A DNA stretch of 64,000 bases from Candidatus Hydrogenedens sp. (GCA_049968235.1 JBMFRC010000015.1:10815-74814); one strand, 5' to 3'. Shown: positions 21,901 through 48,300, numbered from the stretch's first letter. Notes: generated from the letters alone by a model not told the origin. A program made the numbers and translations.

Positions 21901-23726
21901 TTATAGATGTCCTGAATATGGACAAGCAAATGGAACATCATAAAAATGTCTACGGTTATTGGGCACCTTCTATTTATGCCTATGCACAGATGAAAGTTTT
22001 TGACAGACTTATTCCTGACGGCGGAAATCTGTTACCTGAAGCAGAGGCTCTTCTAAAACTTATAGACCCGTATGAGTATTTGGAAAGAATGCAGAATATT
22101 CCCAAGTTTATTTTAAATTCATCCTGCGATGAATTCTTTGTACCCGATTCTTCTTTATGGTATTTCAAGGATTTGTTGGGAGAGAAATATCTAAATTATG
22201 TTCCTAATGTCTCTCATGGACTTGGGAATGAATTTAGTTTTGAGACAGATGCGGTGCAAAATTTGTTCGCATGGTTTTTAGCAAAAACTCAAAATATTCA
22301 ATTACCCACTTTCACATGGCAGAAGGTTACAAATGGAAATGCAAATACATTACAGGTGGTTGTAAATAGCCAGTTTACATCTTTAATAAAAGAAGTAAAA
22401 CTATGGCAATGCAATAATCCATATGCAAGAGATTTTAGAAAATACAAGATTGATAGCATTGGAGTTCAGTATCAAAGTGAAATATTACAACCTGTAACCC
22501 CGGGCGTTTATCAAGCAACGGTAAATACCCCTTCACAGGGCTATACGGCGTATTTTATTCAGTTAACATTTAATAATCCAGCAAGATTTCAAATGGCGGT
22601 TCCGGGGCTAACAGTTCCTTCATTAGTCTATACAACTTCTATTTATATCACTCCGGAAACTTATCCTGAATACACCTCGGAGAGATACACAAATTACAAA
22701 TATCCATATTTAGTTCTTCGTGGTTCTCCTTACGAAATGGGTAGAGACTATGGAGATTTAATGAGAAATGAAATCATAAACCATGCTAATTATGTGTTGA
22801 GCAATTTAGGGAGATTTGGTGTTACTCAGACAAATCTTGATAACGCGTGGAGTATTCAACAAGGAAATCTTGATGAGAGAATACAACAAGAATTGCAGGG
22901 TATTTCAGATAGCACAGGAATTAATTATGACGCATTAGGGAAACTGCAATTGGTTGAATGCCTGAGTCCGTATTCGACCACAAAATCTTCGGGGTCTTTA
23001 TTATGGTCAACGGCTACCAATATGCCTTCATTCTTCGATTACGCCCCATTAATTCAAACTTATTCATTAAATAGACAGTTGTATAATGGTGGACAACAAA
23101 CCTACCCGGTGGTTATATTTTATATACCTGAACATGGATTTCCCCATGTGTTATTCACTTTCGCCGGAATGGTTGTTAGTAGAGCAGGAGTTAATGTGGC
23201 AGGATTAACATATGGAGATATACCTGTATCTGGTGAAAGTGTCGTGCTGAATGAGAATATGCTAACTGCATTTCGTAGTGCAATGTATGATGTCAATAGA
23301 CTAAATTCACTTATAGAATGGACGGATATGTCTTCGTTAGGTAGATTGCACTCCTATTTATTAGGAGATGGAAGATACGAATTAAGAGGTGCAAAATATC
23401 TGGTCAAATCATCATCAAGGTTGTTAGTAAGAGATAATGATACAAATGATGATTATCGACCTAATATCTTACCAAATATTGTTTATGATGCTGATACGGC
23501 AACGAGGGCAAATAATATTTATACATTAATCCGAGATAACTATGGACAATTAGTTATATCTGGGCTATATACCTTATCACAAAGGGGAGCCGTTGCTAAT
23601 TCAAACTTGATGAATCTTGTAATTGATGCTACCGCTTTGAAGGGATATATTGCTGTTGCGAATGGGACACAAGGCGCCTCTACACAAACATTTGAAATCT
23701 ATGATTTTCAATCTATTTTACCGTAA
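18963..23726 (+). CDS. large surface lipoprotein: 7 x PKD domains + PhoPQ-related (PqaA-like) alpha/beta-hydrolase domain + C45 (acyl-CoA:6-APA acyltransferase-like) Ntn-hydrolase domain
   Basis: The ORF track opens at a TTG (18915). The ATG at 18963 has a GGAG RBS and gives 'MRKSVYFLCFQSILFFTILLTITGC', a signal peptide with lipobox ITGC. There are seven repeats carrying 'W(D/N/S)FGDG' PKD signatures. The central region matches the PhoPQ-related family ('IWKHNLAIIVPE', 'SGGSKRGWTTWLTG', 'MEHHKNVYGYWAPS'). The C-terminus matches C45 peptidases ('LVLRGSPYEMGRDYG', candidate nucleophile 'ECLSPYS', 'FAGMVVSRAGVNVAGLTYGDI'). Confidence 0.7.
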   Translation: MRKSVYFLCFQSILFFTILLTITGCPREEVGGYLIVEPTSVDLGSNDDSADILVWKNTTTSSIGPIVVESQIPWISVEGCATVNDECYSLGPLDKKRIRIRIDREKTDLGPNSGNIIVRATNAPSTTVLITLIDLIKVDFDASSKFTTVNEAIRFFNQSAVQSGTIRKVTWDFGDGQTSNDYNPTYFYQKPGNYTVTLTVETDKGIEKRVKENFINVISGNLTVDFSASSQIVLLGEEVQLIDRSRSEKENIINRFWDFGDGKTSNEVNPRHKYENPGIYSVTLTVYTENQNKSLTKEGYITVQEGVPPKAKFSVSQIKPFIYIPVQFSDLSEAGSSPITDWLWDFGDGNTSTEQNPQYAFTRIGNQQIKLTVKNKFGISSFSLPVEVIYLPPTAEFSAEPLVLYEGESVFFADLSIKGTERIIRWLWNFGDGGTETIEYQPYSHENGNTRYAYAQPGIYSVSLTVNTSTTSNNESSITKSSYITVHKPPVPQLSVSTRSPVIQKEVLFLNRTAIGTETELTFEWNFGDGSPVKTMNTTDSVSHIYSEAGVYDVTLKVKTPLKTFESEPVKVYVDAPPIPDFEYTPKRITVEDLVQFTDLSNSEGTRPIIGWVWSFGDGSGVSTMQNPTHRFESPGKYKVELYLVFTHSKSGEQLKTSAVSKTLTIGSAIPPTAGFKIESPCAIVGSEVKFYDQSKTGTAPIVSWEWDFGDGETSNDPSPIHVYSTPGTYTVKLKVQTEGGLESEVVKQDCIDVSNYASPLDIFVRERDSEYTWTTPVEYPVNYTSGSVSIRLATAYITRMTSQAWREADDLYSGRIWKHNLAIIVPERKRNNTALLFIDGGNINSNPPNESERLFFGELAALSGSVIVHIDNVPNQPIVFIDDYDAERNVILKSRTEDDIIAYSYDKYMNEYKNGNDDYHWPLLLAMAKSAVRAMDTTQFILEDNAPSEFIISGGSKRGWTTWLTGLTDCRIKAIAPLVIDVLNMDKQMEHHKNVYGYWAPSIYAYAQMKVFDRLIPDGGNLLPEAEALLKLIDPYEYLERMQNIPKFILNSSCDEFFVPDSSLWYFKDLLGEKYLNYVPNVSHGLGNEFSFETDAVQNLFAWFLAKTQNIQLPTFTWQKVTNGNANTLQVVVNSQFTSLIKEVKLWQCNNPYARDFRKYKIDSIGVQYQSEILQPVTPGVYQATVNTPSQGYTAYFIQLTFNNPARFQMAVPGLTVPSLVYTTSIYITPETYPEYTSERYTNYKYPYLVLRGSPYEMGRDYGDLMRNEIINHANYVLSNLGRFGVTQTNLDNAWSIQQGNLDERIQQELQGISDSTGINYDALGKLQLVECLSPYSTTKSSGSLLWSTATNMPSFFDYAPLIQTYSLNRQLYNGGQQTYPVVIFYIPEHGFPHVLFTFAGMVVSRAGVNVAGLTYGDIPVSGESVVLNENMLTAFRSAMYDVNRLNSLIEWTDMSSLGRLHSYLLGDGRYELRGAKYLVKSSSRLLVRDNDTNDDYRPNILPNIVYDADTATRANNIYTLIRDNYGQLVISGLYTLSQRGAVANSNLMNLVIDATALKGYIAVANGTQGASTQTFEIYDFQSILP
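19350..21230 (+). repeat. tandem array of seven PKD-domain-encoding repeats (~260-290 nt period) inside the lipoprotein gene
   Basis: Recurring TGGGATTTTGG(A/C/T)GATGG-like segments at ~19474, 19731, 19993, 20243, 20536, 20807 and 21081. Similarity is at protein level with partial nucleotide similarity. Confidence 0.7.
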
Positions 23727-27236: not shown

Positions 27237-28148
27237 TTAACCAATAAAATATTGAAAATTCTTATCAATAAGAGGCTCTATATCTTTCTTATAGATAATC
27301 GGTTCACTCACTTCATTTTTATGTTGTTCCCAAAAAGATTTCCACTCTTCTATATTATCAATTTTTTTATTGTTTAATTCTATTTTCCACAGGTTATTTA
27401 ATGCTTCTTTACTCGAATTGGCAATTCTTGGTTCTGGATGGCTAAGGTTTTCTATAAGAACAGGTGTTACAGATTTTAATCCTACATGGGCTATTGCATA
27501 ATTTGTTATGATACATACATCGATATCCGGGTCAACTAACCCACGAATAATTAAATTATAACTTTCTGTATCTTTTGCAATGGCTAAAAGTTCAATGGCT
27601 TTTCCACGTACTGTCGGTGCGGAATCAAGAATTTTATCTCTTAAAATTTTTATCGTTTTATCTTTATTTATCTTATATAAAATTTCTAAAATATGCGGTG
27701 TGATTGTAGGGGAATAAGAGGGAAGATAGTATTCTAAATAAGGGAAGATATCCATTGTTTTTTGAAGTTCTAATAATCCATTTTTAGCAGTAACACGGTC
27801 AACTTCTTCGCCCCATTGAATTCTACTAATTAGTGCTTCAACCTGTGCTCGTTGGTCTTTATTTAATCCCGTTTTTTCGGTAAGTAATTTGTCTTTTTCT
27901 TCCCATTCCTTTTTTGCTTCATCTAAATTTATTTCACCTGTTTTATCGTTTTTTTGGATGTTAGCAATTTCGTCTTTTGTGTATTTAAATATTTTCTTCC
28001 CTACCTGTATCGTGTAAATTCCATCGGCTGATTCATCAACGATTTGCCCATCAAAAGTAATACCACTTTTTAAGGTAAAGGTATCTGGAAAAGTGAAAAT
28101 ACATATAAAAGACGCGAACAAAAAAGCAAAAATGAACCTTATACCCAT
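27237..28148 (-). CDS. secreted HEAT/PBS-lyase-repeat protein
   Basis: 303 aa. N-terminal hydrophobic signal. C-terminal 'RGKAIELLAIAKDTESYNLIIRGLVDPDIDVCIITNYAIAHVG...' resembles E/Z-type HEAT repeats. Only 33 nt downstream of the GspK-like gene on the same strand. Confidence 0.45.
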   Translation of the reverse strand: MGIRFIFAFLFASFICIFTFPDTFTLKSGITFDGQIVDESADGIYTIQVGKKIFKYTKDEIANIQKNDKTGEINLDEAKKEWEEKDKLLTEKTGLNKDQRAQVEALISRIQWGEEVDRVTAKNGLLELQKTMDIFPYLEYYLPSYSPTITPHILEILYKINKDKTIKILRDKILDSAPTVRGKAIELLAIAKDTESYNLIIRGLVDPDIDVCIITNYAIAHVGLKSVTPVLIENLSHPEPRIANSSKEALNNLWKIELNNKKIDNIEEWKSFWEQHKNEVSEPIIYKKDIEPLIDKNFQYFIG

Positions 28149-28181
28149 TTTAATCCTCCTATAAAAGATATTTATTAAAAA

Positions 28182-30512
28182 TTATTGGAAGTAGAATGCA
28201 ATTTTTCTATAACTAACGACATTAGGGTCGGTAATTTCAAGAAATCTCCGTACACGCGGGTCATAATACATTGTTAAACCAATACCAACACCATTGTTCG
28301 CAGGAACAAATACTCCTAAATCTGCTGAGACTATACCACCACGAACAATCATTTTCCCGTATGTGTTGGAATTATGTCTTGTTTTACTTCTCACGATACA
28401 CCAGATAGAGTTGTTGCTATATAGAAGACCATCGAATTGGAATGGTCGCCCCGAATCGGGACGACTTAATTCATCTTTAAACCAGATGCGCCGTAGAGTA
28501 TCTTCGCTAATCCAGTTCATATCAGGATTACAATAGTGATAAGTAGCACGAGTTAAGATATCCAGTGGCAATCCTTTTTGAATTAGGTAATCACGTAGTA
28601 GTTTTACCCCGGCTTCGTTATACTTTACCGCATGTTCATCAGTTGCATCGTAAATATAAATTTTATCCGGTTGACTTGCCCGTAAGCCATAAAAACGAGG
28701 AGTATAATTGGGGTCTGCTAATGCTTTCTGTAATTCCATACGATTAAAAAGTTTTAATTCCGAGGTAGTGAAACTAAATTGTTGTCCTTTTCTTCCAGCC
28801 ACAATTTGACCTGCATCTACTGAATCAGGGTCAAAATATCCCCAACGCAAAGTTTCTGTTACATTATTAATTGTCACCTTATTTGTTCTGTTTGCATTTC
28901 TGGTATCAATGCTATATTGAGTCCATAGGGGGTATTTTTCATTATTTCTTGCACTATGGTTAACACCACGAACGGTTAGGTAATCACCAACCATAATACT
29001 TCCCCCTGCAACGAGTGCAAAGGCATTGGTAGTTCCATCTTCTGCTTTTCCAAATTCACCCGGAGCATCCGCATAGGTTACATCTCCAACAACATAAACA
29101 TTTCCCCTTACCAGTAACTGTCCTTCACCTTTAATTTTACCTGCAATAACTAAATCTCCATTTACAGCAACGGTTCTTTCTATCTGTATGGGGTCTTGTT
29201 CCGTGCCGATAAGTATGAGATTACCATCATAAGTTCCTGTCGTTGATAGACTATTGATAGCAGAATTCGACGCGGTAGGTAATGGATTATTTATATTCGC
29301 AGGTATATATACAGAACCACGAGGAACACCGTAGGCAACACCGGAAGTTATTTGTCCTGGTGGTGGGGCTTCTCCTTCTACTATTGTATTATCAAAATGA
29401 ACTCTTCCATTGGCAGTATTCAAAACCACCTGGAATTCCTCATCATCAACAATTCGATTATTATTATCATCCGGAAATGGAGCCGGAAAGTTATTAGGCA
29501 CGATCCCATCTGTTTGAGCTTGCTCATCCGTAGGATAATTCATATATAGGTTTGCAAATTGAACGAGGTCCCCATTAGGAGTTCTCCCTGCATTTTGTAA
29601 GTTTGTAATTATCATGTTCCCAGAAGAGTCTTGAACAATTTTACCATTGTTATTATTAATACGATATGATTTCAGAGTTGAACTTTGGAGTTCTGAAACA
29701 GAAAATGGGGTTCCATCAGGTTTATAAACACGACCTCTTGTATATAATGTACCTGCAGCACGACTATCTGCCTCTGTTGGTCTTACTAACATAGATTCCA
29801 GAGATGCAACCTTAATACGGTCAAAAGTATTATAATTTGCAGGGTCAGTATTTCTAAACAAGTCTAAGGACTGAAATTCAGCATGACATAGAATACAACT
29901 TATATTATTTGCAAGAACGGCAAATTCTGTATGAGGACTCGCTCTGCCCCCAATATTAACAACCTGAACCGCTGTTTTTGCAATACCATTCCGTCTCGCA
30001 GTGGATGTTATTGTAAGGAATGAACGAGACCATTCATCATATCTTGCAATATGAACACTTTCAATTTGTGCTACTTCTTGGTTATTGTTAGGGTCCCTTA
30101 ACACAATGGGTTGATTAATCAAAGCCCAACCTCTCCGGTCATATCCAGCAGGATAGGTTTCAAAAATACCGTTCCCATTTCCCGTTTCATCAATATCTTT
30201 GGTCCCATTAAAATTCAGGTCTTCATTTATTGGGATCCCTAAATTATTATCAAGATAGTACCGATAAGAAGCCCAATTTTTTGTTGTATTTCCACTTGTT
30301 TCTATATAATCGTCCCAGAGCCTTTTTAATGCTAGGTCTATACCTGCTTGCGATGCTTCCCTGAGAATAATATCATCTGCAGAAAAATCCGTTTCTCTCT
30401 TGTTATTTACAACTATCGCGGAAATAACTCCTATAGCACCCAAAATTACAATTATAGAAATCGTGGTAAAAATTAACGCTATACCAGATTCTTTTTTTCT
30501 TACATTACGCAT
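28182..30512 (-). CDS. giant GspK-like minor pseudopilin
   Basis: 776 aa. The N-terminus 'RKKESGIALIFTTISIIVILGAIGV' resembles the degenerate prepilin-like segment of GspK/PilX ('QRGVALIIVL'). It follows GspI- and GspJ-like genes in canonical I-J-K order. The remainder is a large Asn/Gly-rich beta-rich domain with no motif I recognise. Confidence 0.45.
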   Translation of the reverse strand: MRNVRKKESGIALIFTTISIIVILGAIGVISAIVVNNKRETDFSADDIILREASQAGIDLALKRLWDDYIETSGNTTKNWASYRYYLDNNLGIPINEDLNFNGTKDIDETGNGNGIFETYPAGYDRRGWALINQPIVLRDPNNNQEVAQIESVHIARYDEWSRSFLTITSTARRNGIAKTAVQVVNIGGRASPHTEFAVLANNISCILCHAEFQSLDLFRNTDPANYNTFDRIKVASLESMLVRPTEADSRAAGTLYTRGRVYKPDGTPFSVSELQSSTLKSYRINNNNGKIVQDSSGNMIITNLQNAGRTPNGDLVQFANLYMNYPTDEQAQTDGIVPNNFPAPFPDDNNNRIVDDEEFQVVLNTANGRVHFDNTIVEGEAPPPGQITSGVAYGVPRGSVYIPANINNPLPTASNSAINSLSTTGTYDGNLILIGTEQDPIQIERTVAVNGDLVIAGKIKGEGQLLVRGNVYVVGDVTYADAPGEFGKAEDGTTNAFALVAGGSIMVGDYLTVRGVNHSARNNEKYPLWTQYSIDTRNANRTNKVTINNVTETLRWGYFDPDSVDAGQIVAGRKGQQFSFTTSELKLFNRMELQKALADPNYTPRFYGLRASQPDKIYIYDATDEHAVKYNEAGVKLLRDYLIQKGLPLDILTRATYHYCNPDMNWISEDTLRRIWFKDELSRPDSGRPFQFDGLLYSNNSIWCIVRSKTRHNSNTYGKMIVRGGIVSADLGVFVPANNGVGIGLTMYYDPRVRRFLEITDPNVVSYRKIAFYFQ

Positions 30513-30522
30513 ACGCTATCTC

Positions 30523-31188
30523 CTAATTTTCTAATTTAACTATCCCGCTGAGTTCGGCGCGAATTAAGGGTCCTTCTCCCGGACCCATTCGTTTCGTTCC
30601 TTCTAAACGAATGTATAACAAAGTAGGGGTATTTTCACTATCACTTCTATCAGGTAATAATTGAAACTCTACATTACTAATACAATTTGCACTCCCTATT
30701 ACGCGTCTATTATTCCCCTGAACCATTACTAATCTTCTTGTTAATGCCCTATCTCCATTTGTATCTTCACCTGCATCTAAAATGGCATTCGGAGGAACTC
30801 CTTCAGAAGAACGGTCTTCATTTTCATATTGAACAAGAATCTGTTGGGATGATTGGACAAATGCAGGTGTGTTGACGGGTACGGGGACAAAAAATCGCAA
30901 GCCCCGTCCATCATTTTGGACTTGAATTGCCTCTGCCCCTGCAGGTGCTATAGGAGGAGTAACATTCGTAGTAACTTCTGTATATGCCTGTTTTACTAAT
31001 TCTGAAAGTTCATTAAATGTATTTCGCAAATCAGAATCGATTTCATTTTGAGCATAAGAAAGTGATGAGGATTTTACAGAAGATTGTAACGCCAGAAAAC
31101 TCAGTAAGGAAATGATACCCATCAATGCAACGGATATAGTTACTTCTATTAAAGTAAATCCAAAAATTCTTTTTTTCATATCACACAT
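30523..31188 (-). CDS. type II secretion/type IV pilus minor pseudopilin (GspJ-like)
   Basis: 221 aa. Prepilin cleavage/methylation motif 'KRIFG|FTLIEV' followed by a hydrophobic helix. The true start may be the ATG at 31179 (MKKRIFGF...). Confidence 0.6.
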   Translation of the reverse strand: MCDMKKRIFGFTLIEVTISVALMGIISLLSFLALQSSVKSSSLSYAQNEIDSDLRNTFNELSELVKQAYTEVTTNVTPPIAPAGAEAIQVQNDGRGLRFFVPVPVNTPAFVQSSQQILVQYENEDRSSEGVPPNAILDAGEDTNGDRALTRRLVMVQGNNRRVIGSANCISNVEFQLLPDRSDSENTPTLLYIRLEGTKRMGPGEGPLIRAELSGIVKLEN

Positions 31189-31197
31189 AGCCTTATT

Positions 31198-31662
31198 TTA
31201 TATTGAAGTTAATATCGTAGCAACTGTATCTCTTATGGGATGCCCACTGAGGGATGTCCATGTGGCAGTTACATAAACCTGAACAGGATTATTTGTCCCA
31301 CCGGCGGGTTCACCATTCATATTTCTGCAGACTACATTTATTTGTAAGTCTGGTATGGGTATAGGATGTCCTTCTACTGATACCATTGTTAACCAATCAT
31401 TGGATGTTTTCCCGTTTATCCATGCATAAAAACCTTCCCAGTTGAAATTCTCATTACTTACAGAAAAGTCCTTCCTTTTTTCGCGAATGGCTTCAATTAC
31501 AGCACGACAAGCATGTAAAGCCTGTATCCGTTCCCTCTGGATTTGTAGATTGTTGTGGGAAGAAACCAATATAACTGAAGTTACTCCTACCACAAAAGCA
31601 AATATAGCCACTGCAATCATAATTTCTATTAATGTTAAGCCCTCATTTCCTTTTTTACTCAT
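31198..31662 (-). CDS. type II secretion/type IV pilus pseudopilin (GspI/GspH-like)
   Basis: 154 aa. 'KGNEG|LTLIEIMIAVAIFAFVV' prepilin N-terminal motif with conserved Glu+5. Confidence 0.6.
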   Translation of the reverse strand: MSKKGNEGLTLIEIMIAVAIFAFVVGVTSVILVSSHNNLQIQRERIQALHACRAVIEAIREKRKDFSVSNENFNWEGFYAWINGKTSNDWLTMVSVEGHPIPIPDLQINVVCRNMNGEPAGGTNNPVQVYVTATWTSLSGHPIRDTVATILTSI

Positions 31663-31846: not shown

Positions 31847-33022
31847 TTATAGAGATTGTTTTAAAATCCTTGCTCCATCGGATGGTGGAGAAATAATATA
31901 AGAGCCATTTCTTCCAGTAAGAGAATTGTATTTTTCAATTAGTAGTTTGACAAAATTTTCAATATGTTTTGTTTCTACTAAATTTATTGTGCAACCGCCA
32001 AAACCAGCCCCGGTCATTCTTGCCCCTTTACATCCCTCTATGTTTCTTGCTATTTCTGTCATTAATTCTAACTCCTGATTAGTAACTTCGTAGTTTTTTT
32101 GCAGGCTTAAATCTGATTCATTTAGCAAATCCCCCACTTTAGAGATATTTCCATTTTTGAGTGCCTCAATACAGAAAAGAACTCGATCATTTTCAGATAG
32201 AACATGGAAAGCCCGTTTATAAGATACAGGATGCATTATATTTTTTGTTTGGAGTAGTTCCTCAATAGTGAAATCTCTCAAATGTGTAGCGGATTTTTTA
32301 TAGAATTTATTTAAAGTATCTAATGCATCATTACATTCCGCTACTCGTTCATTATATTTTGAACCTGTAAGCCCTCTTGGGCAGTTTGTATTTGCTATCA
32401 CAAAAGTATATTCAAGTAAATCAATAGGAGTTAATTCGTATTTTAGTGTTCTGCAATCCAAGAACAAAGCATGTCCTTTTTTCCCACATCTCGAAATAAA
32501 TTGGTCCATGATACCTGATTTTAATCCAAGGAATTCATTTTCAACGCGTTGCCCTAACTTTGCAGACTCCACATCGTTTAAATTGAAGTTGCCCATTGCT
32601 TCAAATAACTTTAAGATAGCCATTTCAAGGGATGCGGAGCTACTAAGCCCACATGCCATAGGAACATCACCAAATATGACACCATCTATACCTGTAAGGG
32701 GAAGACCCAATTTTTTTAATTCATACGAAACCCCCATAACATAATCCATCCATGGGTCAATAGGATTACGAGATGGATAGTTTATATCTGCAATACTTTG
32801 ACGGTTGGTATTCAATGCATAAAAATTTAACAACGAATCATGTCTTTTTTTCCCAGCAATATAAGTCCCTTGTTCCAGTGCCATTGGAAGCACATAACCA
32901 TGGTTGTAATCGGTGTGTTCCCCGATAATATTTACCCTACCCGGAGCCTTTACAATGACATCCGGAATCGTATTAAAAAAGTGCAAAAATTGTTTTTCTA
33001 AGTATTGCAGAATATCTCCCAT
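31847..33022 (-). CDS. galK: galactokinase
   Basis: 391 aa. 'PGRVNIIGEHTDYN' galactokinase signature and GHMP-kinase ATP loop 'PMACGLSSSAS'. 'GAGFGGC' near the C-terminus. Confidence 0.85.
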   Translation of the reverse strand: MGDILQYLEKQFLHFFNTIPDVIVKAPGRVNIIGEHTDYNHGYVLPMALEQGTYIAGKKRHDSLLNFYALNTNRQSIADINYPSRNPIDPWMDYVMGVSYELKKLGLPLTGIDGVIFGDVPMACGLSSSASLEMAILKLFEAMGNFNLNDVESAKLGQRVENEFLGLKSGIMDQFISRCGKKGHALFLDCRTLKYELTPIDLLEYTFVIANTNCPRGLTGSKYNERVAECNDALDTLNKFYKKSATHLRDFTIEELLQTKNIMHPVSYKRAFHVLSENDRVLFCIEALKNGNISKVGDLLNESDLSLQKNYEVTNQELELMTEIARNIEGCKGARMTGAGFGGCTINLVETKHIENFVKLLIEKYNSLTGRNGSYIISPPSDGARILKQSL

Positions 33023-33062: not shown

Positions 33063-34166
33063 TTATATGATGGCTTGTTCTGTTACAGGGTCAAAAAAAT
33101 GAATTTTTTCAATGTTTATATTTACAATAAAAGGTTCACCTATAGAGGGCTCTTTATCTAACTTCAGTTTTGCTGTAATCGTATTCATTCCAGTATTTAA
33201 GTACAGATTCATTTCAGAGCCCATAGGTTCAACCACATCAACAATTGCTGATATTGAAATACCTTTTTGAGGGGTTTGACTTTGATTAATTATAAAATCT
33301 TCTGGGCGAATACCTAAAATTGTTTTTTGATTAATAAAATTTTTTAGATGTTCTTGTAAATTCTCTGGGACAAGAATCTCGATATTTTTATTATCAGAAA
33401 AATATAACTTTTCGTCTTGAAATATAATACTGCCTTCAATCATATTCATAGGTGGACTTCCTATAAAACCTGCCACAAATTTATTTACAGGCTTGTTATA
33501 CAATTCCAGAGGAGTTCCTATTTGCTGAACCGTCCCATTATTCATAACAACAATACGGTCACCCATTGTCATGGCTTCAATTTGGTCATGGGTTACATAA
33601 ATAATGGTGGCTTTTAATTGATGGTGTAATTTTGATATTTCTGCACGCATCTGGACGCGCATTTTAGCATCCAGATTGGAAAGAGGTTCATCAAAAAGGA
33701 AAACTTTCGGATTACGAACAATGGCTCTACCCACCGCAACTCTTTGTCTTTGTCCTCCAGAAAGAACTCTTGGTTTAGCATTTAAATACTCAGTCAGACC
33801 TAATATCTCAGCTGCTTCTCGAACTCGTTTATCAATCTCTTGTCTGGAGACCCCTCTCAACATTAAACCAAATGCCATGTTTTTATACACTGTCATATGC
33901 GGATATAACGCATAATTTTGAAAAACCATAGCAATATCACGGTCTTTGGGGTGAACATTATTTACCAATTTACCATCAATTAAAATATTCCCAGAACTAA
34001 TTTCTTCAAGACCCGCCACCATCCGTAATGTTGTCGTTTTCCCACACCCCGAAGGTCCTACAAGCACAACAAACTCTGTATCCTCTATTGTTATTGTTAC
34101 ATCTTTCACTGCGATAAAACCATTGGGATAAATTTTCGTTAAATGTATTAATTCAACTTTTGCCAT
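33063..34166 (-). CDS. sugar-import ABC transporter ATP-binding protein (MalK/MsmX/UgpC type)
   Basis: 367 aa. Walker A 'GPSGCGKTT', signature '[14 protein letters not shown]', Walker B 'FLFDEP'. C-terminal TOBE-like regulatory domain. No permease or solute-binding-protein genes adjacent. Confidence 0.85.
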
Positions 34167-34195: not shown

Positions 34196-34930
34196 TTATA
34201 TTGTATTTTGTTTCATATCATTGATTAAACTTGTCCGAAAATCTTCGGGTATATCCATGTTATTAATAATAAGTGAATTGATAATACATTCCAGGATGTA
34301 TGTGTAATCTGAAGACACATTCTCAGATTGTTTGTTAAAATAAAAATGCTTCGGTGTATTTATTTTTATTTTCTGAGGTTCAAGATTTTGAGTAATTACG
34401 ATTCTAACTTTTTCTATAGAGATAGAACGAATACTTCGGGTCATTCCTACATTTGAATATAGTTCTTTTTTTAATATTTTTAATAGAGAACCTATGTTAG
34501 TTCCTTTACCCGGAATATAATATAAGTTTAGTTGCAAATTATCTATATATATGTCATAGTTTATTTTAAAATTGGAAGAGATAGATGCCTTTGTCTGTAT
34601 ATGTTCCGATTGTAAAACAGGTTCGTCGGGGAAGGGGACAAGATTTTTTACATAAAAATTCTTAAAAGTAATAGAAAAATCCCAAAGATTTACATAAGCC
34701 TTGTCAAAGTAAAAAGTGATATTCGACGACCGTGTTAAATATTTTTCAGCGATTTTAGTAATAAGAAATGTCCGAGTATATGGGTAAAATACAGAAACAC
34801 CACACAAAAGAAATAACAAACTACCTGTAAAAGTCATAGCATAAAAAACTTTTTGTTTGAAGGTAGTTTTTACTTTTTTCTTTTTAGTGGTTCTTTTCTT
34901 GTTAGATTTTTTATTTGAAGTTTCAGTCAA
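34196..34930 (-). CDS. hypothetical membrane-anchored protein (Lys-rich N-terminus, single TM)
   Basis: 244 aa. N-terminal '[15 protein letters not shown]' followed by one hydrophobic helix. Overlaps the upstream ORF by 8 nt, indicating translational coupling. No recognisable family. Confidence 0.4.
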
Positions 34931-35657
34931 AGGTATGAGTCCAGTTTAATACCTTTTTATGAAGGGATTTCTGTTTTTTCTTTAAATTCTCTTTACTGTC
35001 TTTTAACTTCATAGTAAGAGGGACTTCTACAGGCACCTGTTTTGGACTCCAGGAAAAACAGAAAAGGGTGTCATAACCGTTTAATATAAGATATATCTTT
35101 ACATTTTGAAGTCCTTCTTTAGGTACAAGGATTTCATTTGCGTTGTAAGGGAAAATAAGGGTAACCTTTCGTTTAAATCTGCGAAGGGTTCCCGATGGTA
35201 TTTCTTCCAGCGATTTGTCAACAACAATCTGTGTAGGATGTATCTCTGTATTTTCATTCAAGAGCATATAAATATTAAACCCCCTTAAACTAACACTATC
35301 ATAAGCAATACTCATATCCTGAAAGGAAGAATCCAATACAATTTCAATTGTAACTCCATGAGTTGTTGAAGAATTCGGTGACATCCATACCGCCTGACTT
35401 TCAGGGTTAAATATTTTTGGATAAGGACCCCGCATACATTGAATATTTGAAACAGGATTATCCGGGACAAAAGGTATTAGTTCCCCTGCCGATACTGTTT
35501 CCTCCCCCTTCTTTTTATCTGCACTTGTTTTACAACTTATTCCGGAAACAAGAAAATAACTACATAAAATTAATGTAAATACAATACTCGTGATACAATT
35601 AAAACTTAAATAAAAACAAGTGTAATTTTCTGAATATTTTATATTTCTGTTTGGCAT
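34923..35657 (-). CDS. hypothetical exported protein
   Basis: 244 aa. N-terminal hydrophobic signal-like segment ending '...LVSGISC'. No recognisable family. Confidence 0.4.
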   Translation of the reverse strand: MPNRNIKYSENYTCFYLSFNCITSIVFTLILCSYFLVSGISCKTSADKKKGEETVSAGELIPFVPDNPVSNIQCMRGPYPKIFNPESQAVWMSPNSSTTHGVTIEIVLDSSFQDMSIAYDSVSLRGFNIYMLLNENTEIHPTQIVVDKSLEEIPSGTLRRFKRKVTLIFPYNANEILVPKEGLQNVKIYLILNGYDTLFCFSWSPKQVPVEVPLTMKLKDSKENLKKKQKSLHKKVLNWTHTFD

Positions 35658-35718
35658 ATCTTTATGAAACTTTGTTTTACTTATATTAACAGATTTAATG
35701 AAGAATAAAAAATATACA

Positions 35719-36459
35719 TTACTTATTTTTTAATGGTTCTTTAGTCGAAACATCTACATGAGGTTTCGGTAAATTGGATTGATTATCTTTTTTTAAAGGC
35801 AAATCAATGGCACTTCTGCTCTCGTCTCCACCTTTACCATATTTCATTAAAACCATTTCACCCTCAGTAGTGGATAATTTCACAATACCCAGAGGTTTTA
35901 CCTCATCATTAAGCCAGATTTCTTTTGTTGTATTATCTTCACTAATTCTGTAATGTTTTGCTTTTATTTTACCATTCTTAAACTCAATATCTTCTTCACC
36001 AATAAGGTTTTTCTTTGAAGGTGTATCCGTATTTCCTGACATAGTTTCAACATCAATATTTTGGGGGGGATTGGCTCCTTCACGAACTACTATTTTGTGA
36101 ATTTTCTCTTTCCCATTGTTATCATAAGAAATCAGAAAACGATATACAGAAGGAAATCCTTCCATAGGGATAATTTCCGATTCTAACCACAATGCAGAGG
36201 TATTTTCATCTATTTTTTCTATTCCCGTTAATGCTTGCCTTAATAAAATATGTGTTTTTGTGGATTTATCCGTTATTTCATAAATAGCCCAAACACCCGG
36301 TTCGGATGATAGTATCTTCCCTTTAAATAAATCCTCTATAAAACTCTGGGTATTTCCTATTTTAGGGGAGAGAATATAAAGAAGAAATATCTGGATATAT
36401 AAAAATTTAGTCCAGAAAAAATATTTTTTTGTTCTTATAAAAGAAAAATTACAAAGCAT
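35719..36459 (-). CDS. hypothetical exported protein
   Basis: 246 aa. N-terminal hydrophobic segment. Starts 12 nt after the GHKL ATPase stop. No recognisable family. Confidence 0.4.
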   Translation of the reverse strand: MLCNFSFIRTKKYFFWTKFLYIQIFLLYILSPKIGNTQSFIEDLFKGKILSSEPGVWAIYEITDKSTKTHILLRQALTGIEKIDENTSALWLESEIIPMEGFPSVYRFLISYDNNGKEKIHKIVVREGANPPQNIDVETMSGNTDTPSKKNLIGEEDIEFKNGKIKAKHYRISEDNTTKEIWLNDEVKPLGIVKLSTTEGEMVLMKYGKGGDESRSAIDLPLKKDNQSNLPKPHVDVSTKEPLKNK

Positions 36460-36471
36460 ATTTTATATAAA

Positions 36472-37713
36472 CTAAATTAATAGTTTTTGGATTTCAGTTT
36501 CTTTGTCTTCGGGTAAAGAAATAATCTCATTTACTATATGAGTAACTTTATTTGAATCTGTTTGTATCAAGGTGTAAAGAAGTTTCAGAATTAATTGCTG
36601 GGTTAATTTTGGGGCGTCATTGAGTTCACGAACCATCTGGAAAAGATGAGTGGCGTATATGTCAAATATTTTTATAGAAATACTGTTTTCCGGATTAGAA
36701 ATCTCCTCAGGAGTTATAGGATAAATCCCATCATCTTTCCACTCCTGAATCATCAATTGTGTTTTTTCTGCTTCCCGAAGAATAAAATGTTCACGAAGTC
36801 TTTTTTTGCAAAATTGAGTGAGAAAACGGACATCTTCACATAACTCGTCTGTTTGAAGTAGCCCTTGCTGGTCTAATAATTTGATATATTCTGACTTAAA
36901 ATATGCAGTATAACTAAATCCACGAAAATGTAATCGAGGGAAAGGAATAAATCTTGCAAATCCATTTTCATCGCAGAATAAAAGTCCCCGTCTTCCCGAT
37001 GTGTTCCACTCTACAATAGTTAAGTCTGCATTGATTGTTTTACCACTGGGAACAACTATATCGTGGTATTTATATTCATACTGGTTTTTCTGAACATTTT
37101 GCGGGTCAATAGATATTCCATCGTATATAATTTTTACATTTGGGTATTGCGTTAAATAGGGTGCAAAAATATCAGTAATTTCTTCCATTGCAAGTGTCCC
37201 ACGTACAAGGGAAATGTTATCATTGGGTAAAGCAATTCGGACATACATACCTGTCGCGTTTTCATACTCTGTAACAGGTTCCGGTTCAGACACCTCAAAT
37301 ACAGATAAATTCTCAATATTTCCCTTAATATAGAAACAATAACGATTATTTCCCTCACAATAAATACTTTTCCATGTTACTTTGTTTCCCAAAGAAAAAG
37401 CACGAAATCGTCCTTTACCATATTTCCCATGCAGGATTCTCTTCTCATTGGGGGTAACATATTCTCCCTTTTTCCATGAACCACCTAAATTGCTGAAAGA
37501 AATTAGGGCATCTTCAAATCGCAATCCATTGCCATCATCAATAATGTCAATATAGTCCAATCCACTTAATTCATTCTCAACAAAACGAACCTGGACATGT
37601 TTTGCCTCTGCATCGAGAGCGTTCCAGATTAATTCGACTATGGCATTTAGCGGACGAGTTTTACCTATGGTTTCAAGATGGTCTTCTTTAACCTGAATGT
37701 GTATTGTTCGCAT
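36472..37713 (-). CDS. stand-alone GHKL (Bergerat-fold) ATPase, HATPase_c-like N-terminal domain + ~260-aa unknown C-terminal region
   Basis: 413 aa. N-box 'IVELIWNALDA', G1 box 'IDDGNGL', G2-like 'GKYGKGRF'. No HisKA, receiver, MutL or topoisomerase transducer motifs recognised. Confidence 0.55.
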   Translation of the reverse strand: MRTIHIQVKEDHLETIGKTRPLNAIVELIWNALDAEAKHVQVRFVENELSGLDYIDIIDDGNGLRFEDALISFSNLGGSWKKGEYVTPNEKRILHGKYGKGRFRAFSLGNKVTWKSIYCEGNNRYCFYIKGNIENLSVFEVSEPEPVTEYENATGMYVRIALPNDNISLVRGTLAMEEITDIFAPYLTQYPNVKIIYDGISIDPQNVQKNQYEYKYHDIVVPSGKTINADLTIVEWNTSGRRGLLFCDENGFARFIPFPRLHFRGFSYTAYFKSEYIKLLDQQGLLQTDELCEDVRFLTQFCKKRLREHFILREAEKTQLMIQEWKDDGIYPITPEEISNPENSISIKIFDIYATHLFQMVRELNDAPKLTQQLILKLLYTLIQTDSNKVTHIVNEIISLPEDKETEIQKLLI

Positions 37714-37787: not shown

Positions 37788-39110
37788 TTAAGTGATTTTT
37801 CGATGGTCTATAACCCTGCATGCTTTCCCTGTGGAACGTTCCAATGTATTTGGAGGCAATAACTCTATATTAACATGAATACCTGTAATTTCATTAATTT
37901 TACGAAGGACTCGGTCTCGTAAAGATTGCATCTCGCTCATCTTATCCGAAATATACCCTGCTTGTAATTCCACTTTTACCGATATTTCATCTAATATGCC
38001 AGGTCTTGTTACTTCAATAAGATAGTGTGGAGCAATGCCCGGAACTTGAAGAATGGCTTCTTCAATTTGAGATGGAAATACATTTACGCCTCGAATGATA
38101 AGCATATCATCTGAGCGTCCTTTTACACGGGACATCCGTTTTGTTGTTCTTCCACAGGGACATGGACTGGTATCTAAACATGCCAGGTCCCTTGTTCTAT
38201 AACGGATTATTGGGAACGCTTCCTTTGTTAAACTTGTAAATACCAGTTCACCGTATTCGCCTTCTTTTACTGGTTCAAGTGTAGAAGGATTTAAACATTC
38301 TACAATGAAATGGTCCTCCTGAATATGCATACCTTTCTGCAAATAACATTCACCACTTACTCCCGGTCCGATTACCTCGCTAAGTCCATAATTATTAAAA
38401 GCCTTAATTCCCAATTGCTCTTCTATTTCTTTTCGCATATCTTCAGTCCACATTTCACCCCCAAAATGTCCATATTTTAATGATAGATTTTTAGGGTCTA
38501 TCCCTGTTTGCTTTGCATGTTCTGCGATATTTAATGCATAACTGGGTGTACATATTAACACATCAGGTTTTAAATCTTGGATAAGCAAAATTTGTCTTGC
38601 CGTGTTACCGGACGCAGCAGGAATAATGGTAGCACCAACCTTTTCTGCTCCGTAATGTAATCCAAAACCACCTGTGAAAAGTCCATAACCAAATGATATT
38701 TGCACAAAATGTTCTTTTCGTAACCCGCCTGCCACAAGAAACCGTGCACATAGATTTGCCCATGTCTCAATGTCTTTATGTGTATATGCCACCAATGTGG
38801 GTTTGCCTGTTGTTCCAGAAGAACCATGGATTCGTGCCAGTTCATATTTAGGAACCGCAACCAATCCTAAAGGATAATTTTGCCTTAAATCTTCTTTTAC
38901 AGTAAAAGGTAATCTTCTTAAATCATCAAGAGACTTTATATCCTCAGGTTTAACTTTGTATTTGTCGAAAGAGTTTTTATAGAAAGGAACGGTATTATAA
39001 ACTCTTTCCACTACTTTTTTTAACAATTCTAATTGTAACTTGTGCCGTTCTTCCGGTTTAATTGTTTCCGCAGAGTCCCAGATAGAATTTTCGAACGGTA
39101 ACGAATTCAT
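37788..39110 (-). CDS. phenylacetate-CoA ligase family adenylating enzyme (PaaK/F390 synthetase-like)
   Basis: 440 aa. AMP-binding '[10 protein letters not shown]', and 'YGLSEVIGPG' / '[17 protein letters not shown]' typical of PaaK-type ligases. Confidence 0.8.
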   Translation of the reverse strand: MNSLPFENSIWDSAETIKPEERHKLQLELLKKVVERVYNTVPFYKNSFDKYKVKPEDIKSLDDLRRLPFTVKEDLRQNYPLGLVAVPKYELARIHGSSGTTGKPTLVAYTHKDIETWANLCARFLVAGGLRKEHFVQISFGYGLFTGGFGLHYGAEKVGATIIPAASGNTARQILLIQDLKPDVLICTPSYALNIAEHAKQTGIDPKNLSLKYGHFGGEMWTEDMRKEIEEQLGIKAFNNYGLSEVIGPGVSGECYLQKGMHIQEDHFIVECLNPSTLEPVKEGEYGELVFTSLTKEAFPIIRYRTRDLACLDTSPCPCGRTTKRMSRVKGRSDDMLIIRGVNVFPSQIEEAILQVPGIAPHYLIEVTRPGILDEISVKVELQAGYISDKMSEMQSLRDRVLRKINEITGIHVNIELLPPNTLERSTGKACRVIDHRKIT

Positions 39111-39126
39111 TTGTATTTACCTTATA

Positions 39127-39567
39127 TTATTGATTGGCTTTTTCATATAATTGAACACTATCCAGAACATTAATTCCTTTCCCTTGCAATGCCTTTATAG
39201 CGATGTCAGGTTGGTCAAATCGAAAAACAATAACTGCTTTGTCCCCACTGCGGAAGGTAAATGCATACATATATTCTATATTTAAACCTTCGTTCTCAAT
39301 TACTTCCAGAATTTTGGCAAGTCCGCCGGGTTTGTCTTCAACTTCAGTAGCAACTACTTCTGTTGTATTGACAATAAACCCCTCCTGTTCAAGAACTTCT
39401 TTTGCCTTCTTCCAATCTTGAATAATAAGACGGAGAATTCCAAATTGTTGAGTATCTGCAAGTGATAAGGTAACTATGTTTATATTATTCCGGGCTAATA
39501 CCTTACATGGCTCACTAATTCTGCCGGGTTTGTTTTCTAAAAACATCGAAATCTGTTGTATTTTCAT
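39127..39567 (-). CDS. ACT-domain protein
   Basis: 146 aa. Two beta-alpha-beta-beta-alpha-beta-like halves ('IVTLSLADTQQFGILRL', 'VVATEVEDKPGGLAKIL') typical of ACT regulatory domains. Sandwiched between two PaaK paralogues. Confidence 0.55.
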   Translation of the reverse strand: MKIQQISMFLENKPGRISEPCKVLARNNINIVTLSLADTQQFGILRLIIQDWKKAKEVLEQEGFIVNTTEVVATEVEDKPGGLAKILEVIENEGLNIEYMYAFTFRSGDKAVIVFRFDQPDIAIKALQGKGINVLDSVQLYEKANQ

Positions 39568-39590
39568 ATATTACTCCCTCATAGTAAGTA

Positions 39591-39620
39591 AGTTTATTTA
39601 TTTATTTATTTATTCATTCA
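39591..39620. repeat. short tandem repeat (TTTA)5(TTCA)2 in intergenic region
   Basis: Sequence gtttatttatttatttatttattcattcatt lies between the ACT gene start and the PaaK stop. Confidence 0.6.
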
Positions 39621-39629
39621 TTATAAAAA

Positions 39630-40961
39630 TCATATTTTTCTTAAATCCACTACGCGTTTGGCTTTACCTTCGCTTCTGGGTATTGAATGAGGTTCAACAA
39701 GTTTCACATTTGCTCTAATATTAATTATTCTCTCAATGGATTGCATAAACTTATTCTGAAGTTTTTCCATCTCACTAATACGGTCACTAAACATTTCTTT
39801 GGTTACTTCAATTAAAATTTCCATCTGGTCTAACCCATGTTCACGGGTTAATTTTATTTGGTAGTGAGGTGTAGACCCTTCCACGGCGAGTAATGCAGTT
39901 TCTATCTGGCTTGGGAATACATTAACACCTCGAATGATAAACATATCATCACTTCTACGCGATATTTTCTTCATTTTTCGTATCGTTCTACCACAGGGAC
40001 AGGGCTTGTCATAAAAAGCTGTTATGTCACGAGTTCTATAACGAATCATAGGCATGGCTTTTTTGCTAAGGGTTGTGAACACCAATTCTCCCTCTTCACC
40101 ATCAGGGAGAGGTTCTAATGTTTCAGGGTCTATAATTTCAGGGTAGAAATGGTCTTCAAAAATATGCAATCCATTCTGGCAAATACACTCATTTCCAACA
40201 CCCGGTCCAATAATTTCCGAAAGTCCATATATGTCGTATGCCTTTATGTTCGCTTCCCTTTCTATGTATTCCCTCATGGCTTCGCTCCAGGGTTCTGCAC
40301 CAAATATCCCAATTCGTAGAGGTAATGATTTCAGGTCAATACCTAATTCCCCAGCCCTTTCGATAATGTGAACAAAATAACTCGGGGTACAACAAATGAC
40401 AGTTACTTTGAAATCTTTCATAATCATGATTTGACGGTCAGTATTTCCACCTGAAATAGGGATAACGGTTGCCCCCAGAGATTCTGCACCATAATGGAAA
40501 CCTAATCCACCTGTGAATAATCCATACCCATAAGCATTCTGAACAATATCACCACGGTCTACCCCGCATGCGGATAGACTACGAACCATAACATTACACC
40601 ATACCTCAATATCTTCTTTTGTGTAAGCAACAACAATTGGCTTTCCAGTGGTCCCACTGGATGCATGAAGTCGTACAATTTCATGCATAGGACTCGCAAA
40701 TAGACCAAAGGGATAGGTATCTCTTAAATCTGTTTTGACCGTGAAAGGTAAATGCTTTATATCCTTAATAGAAAGAATATGTTCCGGTTTTACTTTGTGT
40801 TCATCCATTCGTTGTCGATAAAACGGAACATTCTCGTAAACCCGTTGAACTATCTTTTGCAAACGGTGTGATTGGATTTCTTCGAGAAAATTTTGTGGTA
40901 AATAGTCCACAGAACTAATCGGATTAAATTTGCTCCCTGCATCATGCCAAAAACAACTCAT
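39630..40961 (-). CDS. phenylacetate-CoA ligase family adenylating enzyme (second PaaK paralogue)
   Basis: 443 aa. '[10 protein letters not shown]', '[10 protein letters not shown]', '[17 protein letters not shown]'. Roughly half the residues are identical to the 37788..39110 product by eye. Confidence 0.8.
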
Positions 40962-45323: not shown

Positions 45324-48300
45324 TTACCATCGAATATCTATAACAACCTTTTCATTTTCAAGAACTGTAATAGATTGTCTTAATAAAACCGTTATTAAAT
45401 TTGTTTTATATAATTCATCTTGCTGAATTATCCCTATTTTTTCAGTAATGGGTATAGAATTATCCCCCTTGATTATGGACATATTCATTTGATTAAATCT
45501 CAACTTTTCAGCAGGTAAACTGATTCTTGAGATTTCTAATTTCCCATAATGGGGTATGATGGTTACAGTTGTTTTACGAGGGCCACTATTAAACTCAAAT
45601 ATCCCCCATGAGGTACCTGTGGAAAAGAAGAATGAAGAAGGGTTCTCTTTTACACGGGGAGTTATTTTAATTTTTCCCTTGTCAAAATTAAAACCAGAAC
45701 CGGCAATAAGCATTGAATAGGCAGACATTGCACGAGCATAATGCCCTCCGCATTCAATTTCGCTCCATGGGTTCTTACGATTTCCCTGATAGCGAGAACG
45801 AGCTCCACTAACTATTTCCACAGCTTTATCCCAGTCTCCTTCAAAAATACTAAGTCCAGCAACTTCGTATTCCATTCCTGTCCATATCTCATCACAGTAA
45901 AGAATGGGGGATTCAGGTCTTCCACCTTTAGGCCAGGTGCACATTAATAGTCCGGGTTCATCATCTTCAGCAAAACGACGTGGTGATTGAACATGGTCAT
46001 AAAAATTTTTCCGCCAGTTATTTTTGTATATAGAATTAAGTGTAGTTTTGATATATGGTTCGGGGAATAAATACCCAAGCCCTAAAATGTGAGACCACCA
46101 TTGCCCTAATAATTGGTCTGAATGACACCCCGGTCCATAACAATTCATTTGATTATAAACCTCCGAACCAACATCAGGAGCATCAAATGCATTGATGAAA
46201 TACTCTTCATTCCAGCAGGTTTCAATGTATTTTTTCCTACCCGATTCATACCTTTTCTGACATTCTAAAATTAGATTTGGGTCAGGAGAACCTAATTCTT
46301 TTAACATTATTTCCATCGCCTTTAATGTGGCAAGATATAAAGTGCCAATAAATGTATTGGAACCATATAAATGTGTATCATAAGTATTCGGTTGTTCGCC
46401 CCGAATAATCCCTTCTCCTGTCGGGTCATGTTTTTCTAAAATGTGTTGGAACACTTTAATTGCATTGTGCCAGATAGGTTCCAGCCATTTTTTATCCGGA
46501 GAAAGTTTATATTCACGATATAGTTTCAGAAGGGTTCCTAACTCACCATCTAAAGCATGATGAAAAGGTCCTCCAATCTCATTTTTCAATTGAGGTTCTG
46601 ACGGTGGAACTATAAAACGATGTGGAATGTAAAATTCTGTCTTATCCATCATATAGAACAACTCCTGGTAGCGTATTCTTTGTTCTAATATGGGGAATAA
46701 AAACGGAAGAGTTTGTGCATAATTATATACATGAGTGCAATTCATAGGACAGCAGTTATCTGTCCCTTCAAAACCACCAACAGTACCATCTTCTAAATAT
46801 ATATAAATAGGTGTGTGAAGTGTGGCAATATTAGCAGAGATGGCTTCTAACATAACAGGTGGAAGTGTGGATGAGAAGAAATCTTTGTGAAACTGAGATG
46901 TCTGACTTAATAAATAGGGAAAATTATCTATACAATAATTTGTTACTTCCATTGCGTTCTTAAAATAATTATTGTAGTAATTCCCTAACCGATAGTCATA
47001 TCGTAAAGGAGGAAGCGTCCAATAATACTGATTTCCACGAGTGCGATTGGGAAAATACCATGCTAGGATAAAAGTAATATCTTCTTTTTCGCCCGGTGAT
47101 AGGTCAAATGGGTATGCAATTGTTCCATTCCATGTATATCCAGGATTGCTGGGTTCCATACTTTCGGGTTGTGGCAATATCCCGTTTTTTGAAAAATACT
47201 GCCAGAAATAATTGAAATCGCTCCATTGAGGACATGTTTGAGGTTCATTTTTCCCAAATGTTTTCAGAGAAAAAACCATATTTCCCCATAAAGGATGTTG
47301 AGAGTCAAGTCCCTTCTCGTAAATATATGGAACATTTGTGGTTAATGCAATCAAAGATGCAATCCAACGTCTCTTATATTCAGGAGCAATCCAATCCGTT
47401 ATCTTCCCATTACACCATACGACAGAGCCTTTACCTATTTTTTTTCTGATAATTAGTGGAATACCTGTATCTGTTTTTAAGAATACCTCACTTTGTTTGG
47501 TAGAGATATTCGGTGTTGTTTTATAAATCTTATTTGTAACCAGTATAGCATCTTTCAAATTGGGAAATAGTCCACCTAATTTTACATTATACTTGCTATT
47601 TATCCAATTCCCTTTTATAGAAGCCATAGGTAGCCACTTTTGTAATGTCTTATATGAATTCTTATCTATAGGGTAGTCATTCGTAAAAACTATCTCATCT
47701 ATTAAAATATGTCCCCATCCATCGGAGGCATTATCTACGATTTCTATATGTGCTTTTTTACCTATATATTCTGCAACATTCCATATAACTTTCTTTAATG
47801 TTTCAGAGTTTGAGCCAGTAGATGATAATATTTTTTCCCCTTCAATAATGAGTGCTATATATGTGTTATCGGGTTTATTTCCTCCACCGATACGAAAATG
47901 AATAAAAGAATGTTGAATAGTAAATTCTTTAGATATTGCAGTCCCGGTTTTTTTATCATCACCATTGTAGGAGTTTACAAAGTATTTTCCTTCATAGCCC
48001 AAGATATCTGTTTGCATAGGAAATTTATCATTGGCAGGTTTATCTCCGAAAGCATCACCTGTGATTGTCCATAAGTTATATGTGCCAGATTCAAAGTTAT
48101 CAAATACATGCTCTTTTTTATGGCTCTTTTTGGCTCTATTTATTGCTACTAACCAATCAAAAATAGAATTTGTATCCCCACTAACAATTAAATGAGCTCC
48201 ATTTTGTATTTTTTTATTAAGTTTCTCTATGTTATCCGATGATAATACTTTTTCAGAGGGTCCTAACCAATAAACACAAGTATCACCTTGTTTTTCTTCA

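Follow-up and report, generated by a model that had tools for sequence, protein, structure and literature searches.

A stand-alone GHKL ATPase and the envelope-protein genes beside it in Candidatus Hydrogenedens: probably separate units

The closest described relatives of the ATPase discussed here are proteins that join a GHKL (Bergerat-fold) module to a nuclease. The paraMORC3 proteins consist of a GHKL domain, an S5 domain and a nuclease of the restriction endonuclease fold, and they often stand alone without conserved neighbours (PMC2292703); according to Iyer et al., GHKL modules operate with fused or stand-alone nucleases. VcSduA of Vibrio cholerae, an anti-phage protein with a GHKL-DUF4263 architecture, was earlier annotated as paraMORC3 (PMC12137116), and those Shedu proteins that bear a HATPase_c_3 domain have an Hsp90/MORC-like middle domain (bioRxiv 10.1101/2023.08.10.552793). 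As regards envelope proteins, a useful comparison is the set formed by the AsmA-like YdbH, the lipoprotein YnbE and their periplasmic partner YdbL (PMC11126948). Here we analyse a stretch of 64,000 nucleotides (nt) from Candidatus Hydrogenedens sp. (GCA_049968235.1, JBMFRC010000015.1:10815-74814), referred to below as the window, in which four minus-strand genes at positions 34196-37713 encode a GHKL ATPase of 413 amino acids (aa; 37713..36472) and three further proteins that we call g2 (36459..35719, 246 aa), g3 (35657..34923, 244 aa) and g4 (34930..34196, 244 aa, TTG start).

An initial annotation of this DNA proposed that the ATPase leads a four-gene envelope system, possibly one with a role in defence or signalling. 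The layout that it described is correct: the four open reading frames (ORFs) are co-directional on the minus strand, g2 begins 12 nt after the ATPase gene, and g4 begins within g3, with an overlap of 8 nt. The gap between g2 and g3 measures 61 nt. The system itself does not hold up. We consider it fairly probable that at least two functionally separate units meet here, that they are neighbours in just a single lineage of Hydrogenedentota, of genus or family rank, and that the ATPase neither powers nor regulates g2-g4. In that lineage the units are probably co-transcribed.

Conservation of the gene arrangement

ATPase homologues number more than 1000, and nearly all of the top 120 are about 410-440 aa long and at least 45% identical. 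A scan in which each GTDB species was represented by a single genome returned 519 relatives, and 80 of these loci were fetched. The g2-g4 genes lie beside the ATPase in only six distinct loci (L001 and L006-L010), in which the ATPase is 60-88% identical to that of the window. All six are colinear with the window from paaK, upstream of the ATPase, to malK, downstream of g4, and beyond, and because the colinearity extends throughout, the adjacency of the ATPase and g2-g4 is uninformative with respect to function. There is no synteny in the other related genomes: within flanks of up to 10 kb per side, tblastn and hidden Markov model (HMM) searches found g2-g4 neither in the 58 loci whose ATPase is 42-50% identical nor in the 21 loci with more distant ATPases. 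The HMM searches were run with the filters off (--max) on the six-frame ORFs of L001-L091 and the window; downstream sequence of 2.5 kb or more is available for 45 of the 58 mid-distance loci, and a few of the 58 are duplicates from the same contig. The reverse test agrees, as the ATPase is absent from all seven loci found via remote g4 homologues, two of which are contigs of only about 1.1 kb.

Retention of the adjacency in six of six distinct clade loci, together with the common strand, the spacing of 12 nt and the lack of an intergenic terminator-like site, could also be read as the mark of a single lineage-specific defence or signalling system in which the ATPase acts on or through g4. The conserved Lys-rich tail of g4 could touch a cytoplasmic partner, and the distant relatives of the ATPase are defence proteins. 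We nevertheless regard this explanation as decidedly unlikely, since the colinearity of the six loci far past the four genes deprives the adjacency of its information, the ATPase occurs without g2-g4 in all of the other 58 and 21 loci, and g4-like genes or g3-g4-like pairs occur without the ATPase in the seven loci mentioned above. Moreover, neither the ATP-binding residues nor the other invariant positions of the window ATPase differ from those in lineages without g2-g4. A PADLOC search of the four proteins, suggested by the initial annotation as a check, matched no system model: in PADLOC-DB v2 the sole match was REase_II (E=7.8e-4), located on the generic GHKL region of the ATPase, and g2-g4 gave nothing.

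The ATPase and its nuclease-bearing relatives

The ATPase matches Pfam HATPase_c_3 with E=2.4e-13 (50.7 bits, cut-off 25) and carries the motifs that characterize the GHKL superfamily, i.e. the N box ExxxNxxD (E27/N31/D34), G1 DxGxG (D59-G61-G63), G2 GxxGxG (G96/G99/G101) and motif IV. None of the listed N, G1 and G2 residues varies among 40 aligned homologues, nor does G155. An AlphaFold model (predicted local distance difference test, pLDDT, 83; predicted template modelling score, pTM, 0.74) suggests three parts on the minus strand. The GHKL nucleotide-binding domain, to which the motifs also point, comprises residues ~1-190 (37144..37713) and includes an ATP-lid (residues 82-99) that is of low confidence or disordered in the model; it is followed by a beta-rich, transducer/S5-like middle domain (residues ~194-290, 36844..37134) and by a helical C-terminal domain (residues 293-413, 36475..36837; model helices at 293-412). 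In structure comparisons the predicted fold is of the GHL type and not of the kinase type, and the position of the transducer/S5-like domain after the GHKL domain is that of the GHL branch. The initial annotation had asked whether the region behind the ATPase domain might be an S5-like transducer, and the predicted middle domain is of this kind. Its description of a stand-alone Bergerat-fold ATPase is likewise borne out by the motifs and by profile searches, which found no kinase, MutL C-terminal, gyrase or Hsp90 C-terminal domain in the protein.

Given the three-part model, we conclude that the ATPase is neither a kinase fragment nor a MutL protein. The combination of a DHp/HisKA and a kinase-type CA domain, which would identify a histidine-kinase fragment, was not found. 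The TIGR00585 (MutL) profile gave 36.7 bits against a cut-off of 180, with a match confined to residues 20-74, and the matches of the ATPase to PDB profiles are confined to residues 20-84. The NCBIfam models BbrUII/HgiDII and MzaB scored far under their cut-offs. Sequence identity to MORC proteins, the N-terminal part of MutL and the N-terminal and middle domains of Hsp90 is just 13-19%. Unlike MutL, the ATPase has no C-terminal endonuclease/dimerisation domain, and unlike MORC and Hsp90 it has no CW or coiled-coil modules and no Hsp90 C-terminal domain.

Relatives outside Hydrogenedentota, found in Verrucomicrobiota, Burkholderiales, Pseudomonas, Acidobacteriota and others, are 660-800 aa long and are 31-37% identical to the window protein over residues 1-412 (tblastn E 1e-74 to 1e-86). 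The window protein ends in an 'LPxxKxxE' helix, exactly where the long relatives run on, after a shared 'LPKEKQxEL' helix, for 246-280 further residues. This extra domain of about 250 aa has invariant D116, E137-x-K139 and Q152..Y156 residues, which form a D...ExK...QxxxY nuclease motif; it was found by tblastn in 20 of the 21 loci outside the phylum, and it gave no tblastn match in the 64-kb window or in any Hydrogenedentota locus. The long forms are present on 49 plasmids, and in Phaeobacter one is located beside a type ISP restriction-modification enzyme. PHROG 6203, a phage protein family of 644 positions, matches the ATPase with E=6.6e-28.

It is instructive to compare the ATPase with the GHKL-Shedu/paraMORC3 proteins (VcSduA, Shedu type I-D), although for VcSduA the comparison is based on its published description. 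Both have a HATPase_c_3 domain with intact motifs, an Hsp90/MORC-like middle domain and a helical linker. On the other hand, the ATPase stops at residue 413 and lacks the PD-(D/E)xK nuclease domain by which Shedu is defined, and tblastn found no split nuclease near it. The distributions also differ: the short form is phylum-wide and syntenic, whereas a sporadic, mobile, defence-like spread is seen only in the long forms. As the defining nuclease is missing, we do not file the ATPase as Shedu. Since neither PF14082 (DUF4263) nor the PADLOC Shedu model at E<=0.1 recognizes the long relatives' nuclease domain itself (there are weak HSDR_N_2 and Cas4 matches), and a profile search among PDB sequences does not match it either, we draw the link to Shedu from architecture, motif and literature. 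The defence connection made in the initial annotation thus finds a counterpart in the paraMORC3/GHKL-Shedu architecture of the nearest relatives outside the phylum and none in a specific PADLOC match. Judged by its homology, the ATPase is a nuclease-less short form, i.e. the GHKL and middle-domain half, of a paraMORC3/GHKL-Shedu-like family, and because the nuclease is absent from the window and throughout the Hydrogenedentota loci, we take it to be the sensor/clamp half of such a protein.

Two of the long forms, in Piscinibacter koreensis (L072) and in an Opitutales metagenome-assembled genome (MAG; L079), appear to be truncated or frameshifted just past the 'LPKExQxEL' helix, i.e. at the place where the Hydrogenedentota short form stops. 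They may be pseudogenes, assembly errors or independent losses of the nuclease.

The short form is widespread in MAGs labelled Hydrogenedentota, with ~42-50% identity to the window protein and a near-constant length of ~411 aa. Short forms compared with each other have a median pairwise identity of 57.6%; for a short against a long form the median is 36.5%. The sole recurrent neighbour is leuS, which lies within the flanks in 17 loci. In eight of these (L014, L015, L020, L023, L030, L036, L049 and L063) leuS follows the ATPase gene in the same orientation after -4 to 170 nt (the overlap of 4 nt occurs in L023 and L049), and this arrangement suggests co-transcription of the ATPase with a housekeeping gene in those loci. 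All ATP-binding residues are kept in the short ATPase, which appears to be inherited vertically, with the chromosome, in Hydrogenedentota.

Three further observations concern these loci. Firstly, a conserved 414-438-aa protein without a Pfam match is encoded convergently and directly downstream of the short ATPase in eight loci on seven distinct contigs (L002/L018, L039, L041, L042, L048 and L050; L002, L003 and L018 represent only two contigs); in several loci it lies between the ATPase and leuS. Secondly, a short-form ATPase is encoded on each of two contigs of the MAG UR.bin34 (L033, with 48% identity to the window protein, and L064, with 47%), which may be due to a paralogue or to a strain mixture. 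Thirdly, many short-ATPase loci (L007, L009, L012, L013, L019 and others) come from MAGs titled 'uncultured Nitrospirales/Nitrospiraceae bacterium'. The ATPase of L007 is 82% identical to that of the window and the locus is colinear with it, and record labels of the Nitrospirales type look unreliable.

Could the short ATPase still be an anti-phage sensor of the Shedu/paraMORC3 type, acting in trans on a nuclease whose gene lies elsewhere in the genome? Its homology to the long relatives covers their N-terminal 412 residues in full, its catalytic motifs are intact, and GHKL modules are known to pair with stand-alone as well as fused nucleases (Iyer et al.). We find such a split Shedu system unlikely, because no homologue of the nuclease domain is present in the flanks of the Hydrogenedentota loci (up to 10 kb per side) or in the 64-kb window, no neighbour other than leuS is conserved, and the phylum-wide occurrence, stable position and constant length of the short form differ from the patchy, mobile occurrence of the long forms. 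The phylum-wide, syntenic and nuclease-free distribution leads us to propose that the ATPase would serve a host function rather than that of a mobile defence nuclease. By analogy with other GHL ATPases it would most likely act as an ATP-driven dimerising clamp on a DNA or protein client.

A more specific version of the host-function proposal is tentative, and we give it clearly less than an even chance. A GHKL module of the Shedu/paraMORC3 type, deprived of its nuclease, would have been domesticated and vertically inherited, possibly as a core gene of Hydrogenedentota that is often translationally coupled to leuS, and would serve as a MORC-like clamp in DNA or protein housekeeping. The short ATPase would then exemplify the domestication of a defence gene, a bacterial parallel to the recruitment of eukaryotic MORC proteins from defence systems. 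A nuclease-less form that is kept across a phylum with intact motifs is also a natural separation of the sensor/clamp half from the effector.

The envelope proteins g2, g3 and g4

An alignment of g4 homologues shows a conserved Lys-rich, predicted cytoplasmic tail and a single transmembrane segment (residues ~28-49) in front of a putative DUF748/AsmA-like periplasmic domain (g4, 34196..34930, minus strand). As the window copy lies under every Pfam threshold, the family was assigned via homologues: Pfam DUF748 matches six of ten family members (best E=9.2e-7), a profile search collected 56 representatives, mostly ~225-270 aa, and the remote homologues carry Pfam AsmA, DUF748 and YhdP matches. 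An N-terminal anchor followed by an AsmA-clan domain can thus be recognized, and g4 is assignable to the DUF748/AsmA-like proteins at the family level. The long, periplasm-spanning beta-groove of AsmA-like proteins is missing in a family of this length. A literature search that combined DUF748 and AsmA-like returned nothing.

The g3 protein (34923..35657, minus strand) is a probable lipoprotein, since a hydrophobic signal region ends in Cys42. This Cys is invariant in all eight full-length homologues (seven of seven in the clade), with a small residue at position -1. A canonical lipobox, VLAGC, is seen in the distant homologue from L092; the clade members are non-canonical at -3/-2. The motif SxFxDxSIAYDxxxLR is invariant in nine sequences. 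No match to g3 was found in Pfam or among PDB sequences, the latter searched with a g3 profile as well.

In g2 (35719..36459, minus strand) a hydrophobic, variable, signal-peptide-like N-terminus precedes a conserved mature domain. The exported protein is predicted to form an open antiparallel beta-barrel, a LolA/RseB-like fold, with a sequence identity of only 5-13% to the LolA/LolB/RseB/MucB/LppX superfamily; in Pfam, LolA and LolB were not matched and there was a weak DUF6134 match alone. Among 5.8 billion proteins g2 has only 19 homologues, all from one lineage, and among the fetched loci it occurs only within the colinear clade of the window. We therefore see g2 as an apparently lineage-specific addition to g3-g4. 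Two other origins were considered and rejected. The g2 protein resembles the lost nuclease domain in size and starts 12 nt past the ATPase stop, but it is not a remnant of that domain: there is no tblastn match, the hhalign probability is 0.05%, and the predicted fold is a beta-barrel and not alpha/beta. It is not a paralogue of g3 either (hhalign probability 0.2%), and no PHROG match points to a prophage origin of g2-g4.

The statement of the initial annotation that the three downstream products are exported or membrane proteins agrees with the N-terminus of g2, the lipobox Cys of g3 and the transmembrane segment of g4. All three are also fast-evolving. Its statement that they belong to no recognizable family is true in so far as there is no direct Pfam, NCBIfam or PADLOC match; it has to be modified with respect to the DUF748/AsmA-like g4 and the predicted LolA/RseB-like fold of g2.

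The seven ATPase-free loci show in which contexts g3 and g4 occur elsewhere. Directly upstream of the g4-like gene in L091 and L092 there is a homologue of g3, with 36% and 31% identity, respectively. In L089 and L090 the g4-like gene is by itself, and L093, a 1.1-kb contig, has only a 53-aa upstream fragment beside it. In L087 and L088 the order is pyruvate phosphate dikinase, g4-like gene, malK and galK. These contexts indicate that g3 and g4 are a conserved pair, apparently independent of the ATPase. In L092 a RelB-type antitoxin gene and a NucS_C/DUF8426 nuclease-like gene lie upstream of the pair (3397-4946); they are probably unrelated to it.

The order seen in L087 and L088, where the g4-like gene is directly followed by genes for a MalK-type ATPase 60% identical to that of the window and for GalK, is also that of the window clade. 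In the window, a MalK-type ABC ATPase of 367 aa (33063..34166, minus strand) is encoded 29 nt downstream of g4 and is followed by a galactokinase of 391 aa (31847..33022, minus strand). One might therefore suppose that g4, with or without g3 and g2, and this ABC ATPase together make up an energised transport system of the envelope, in which case the ABC protein and not the GHKL protein would be the ATPase that matters for the envelope proteins, but we consider this highly improbable. The OB_MalK and TOBE domains are typical of sugar importers and, with the galactokinase that follows, point to carbohydrate uptake; in addition, the g4-like genes of L089, L090 and L092 have no MalK-type ATPase, and no permease gene is adjacent.

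A parallel is offered by the YdbH-YnbE-YdbL proteins of E. coli, to which the inner-membrane-anchored AsmA-family protein g4, the adjacent lipoprotein g3 and the soluble periplasmic g2 would correspond. The differences are considerable. With 244 aa, g4 is far shorter than AsmA-like proteins typically are, and neither g3 (~200 aa when mature) nor the LolA-like g2, nor any of their homologues, is matched by a Pfam family of YnbE or YdbL (DUF1318). The gene order differs as well. The likeness is thus best described as functional analogy only. In our reading g4 is a miniature AsmA-like (DUF748) protein anchored in the inner membrane, the lipoprotein g3 is translationally coupled to it, and g2 is periplasmic. 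From the analogy with the E. coli proteins, and from that with LolA/LolB, we consider it most likely that the three would bind lipids or acyl chains, or hand them over between the membranes, for outer-membrane homeostasis. It is a possibility that g3-g4 define a minimal pair of an AsmA-like protein and a lipoprotein. Membrane-anchored DUF748 proteins of ~240 aa, sometimes paired with a conserved lipoprotein, may represent the AsmA-like machinery for lipid handling in a minimal form, in a diderm phylum that has received little study.

Several points weigh against the reading of two or more separate units and against the roles that we propose for them. Only 12 nt lie between the ATPase stop and the g2 start, the called genes overlap by 22 nt in L010 and L086, and none of these genes is separated by a terminator-like site; the ATPase and g2-g4 may therefore be transcribed together and have a functional link that is specific to this lineage. 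The host function of the short ATPase is deduced from distribution and synteny only, and the nuclease of its relatives is not detected as Pfam DUF4263, by the PADLOC Shedu model or as a PDB sequence. All structural statements rest on AlphaFold models, of which that of g2 has a pLDDT of 75 and an alignment of only 19 sequences; g3 has no assigned fold. The window g4 reaches no Pfam threshold (MDM31_MDM32 alone appears, E=0.0024), and at 244 aa it is far too short to bridge the periplasm alone.

Neighbouring genes

The four genes are part of a longer minus-strand run. The MalK-type ATPase is 71-86% identical in the clade loci, and its family was identified from Pfam ABC_tran, OB_MalK and TOBE_2 matches on the L001 orthologue; the galK product clusters with an L001 protein bearing Pfam GalKase_gal_bdg and GHMP_kinases. 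Upstream of the ATPase gene there is a paaK-ACT-paaK trio, also on the minus strand. No terminator-like site was seen between genes in an intergenic scan across the same-strand run, and the counts from promoter and terminator scans were not above the expectation from shuffled sequences, so that operon limits cannot be set from these scans. As the strand run continues with short gaps on both sides, and without a terminator-like site, the four-gene boundary is arbitrary.

The top database matches are MAG proteins labelled Candidatus Hydrogenedens or Hydrogenedentota, and partial NCBI sequences of g2 and g4 with the locus tags ACP5QY_14360 and ACP5QY_14370 are 100% identical to the window.

The two paralogous paaK-like genes of the trio (window 37788-40961, minus strand) encode phenylacetate-CoA-ligase-like, AMP-binding proteins with 53% mutual identity and flank a 146-aa ACT-domain gene. 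In L001 each of them is apparently split or frameshifted into two ORFs. Past galK there is a run of pseudopilin-like genes (27237-31662, minus strand) with products of 154, 221 and 776 aa, the last of which is unusually large; their prepilin-type N-termini read GLTLIEIM, GFTLIEV and GIALIFT, respectively. A 303-aa ORF (27237-28148, minus strand) is located within the same run, and the cluster is kept in L001, L010 and L086. Finally, very long ORFs (1054, 1226, 1603 and 1276 aa) are found in the window at 10596-23726 and 45324-49154.

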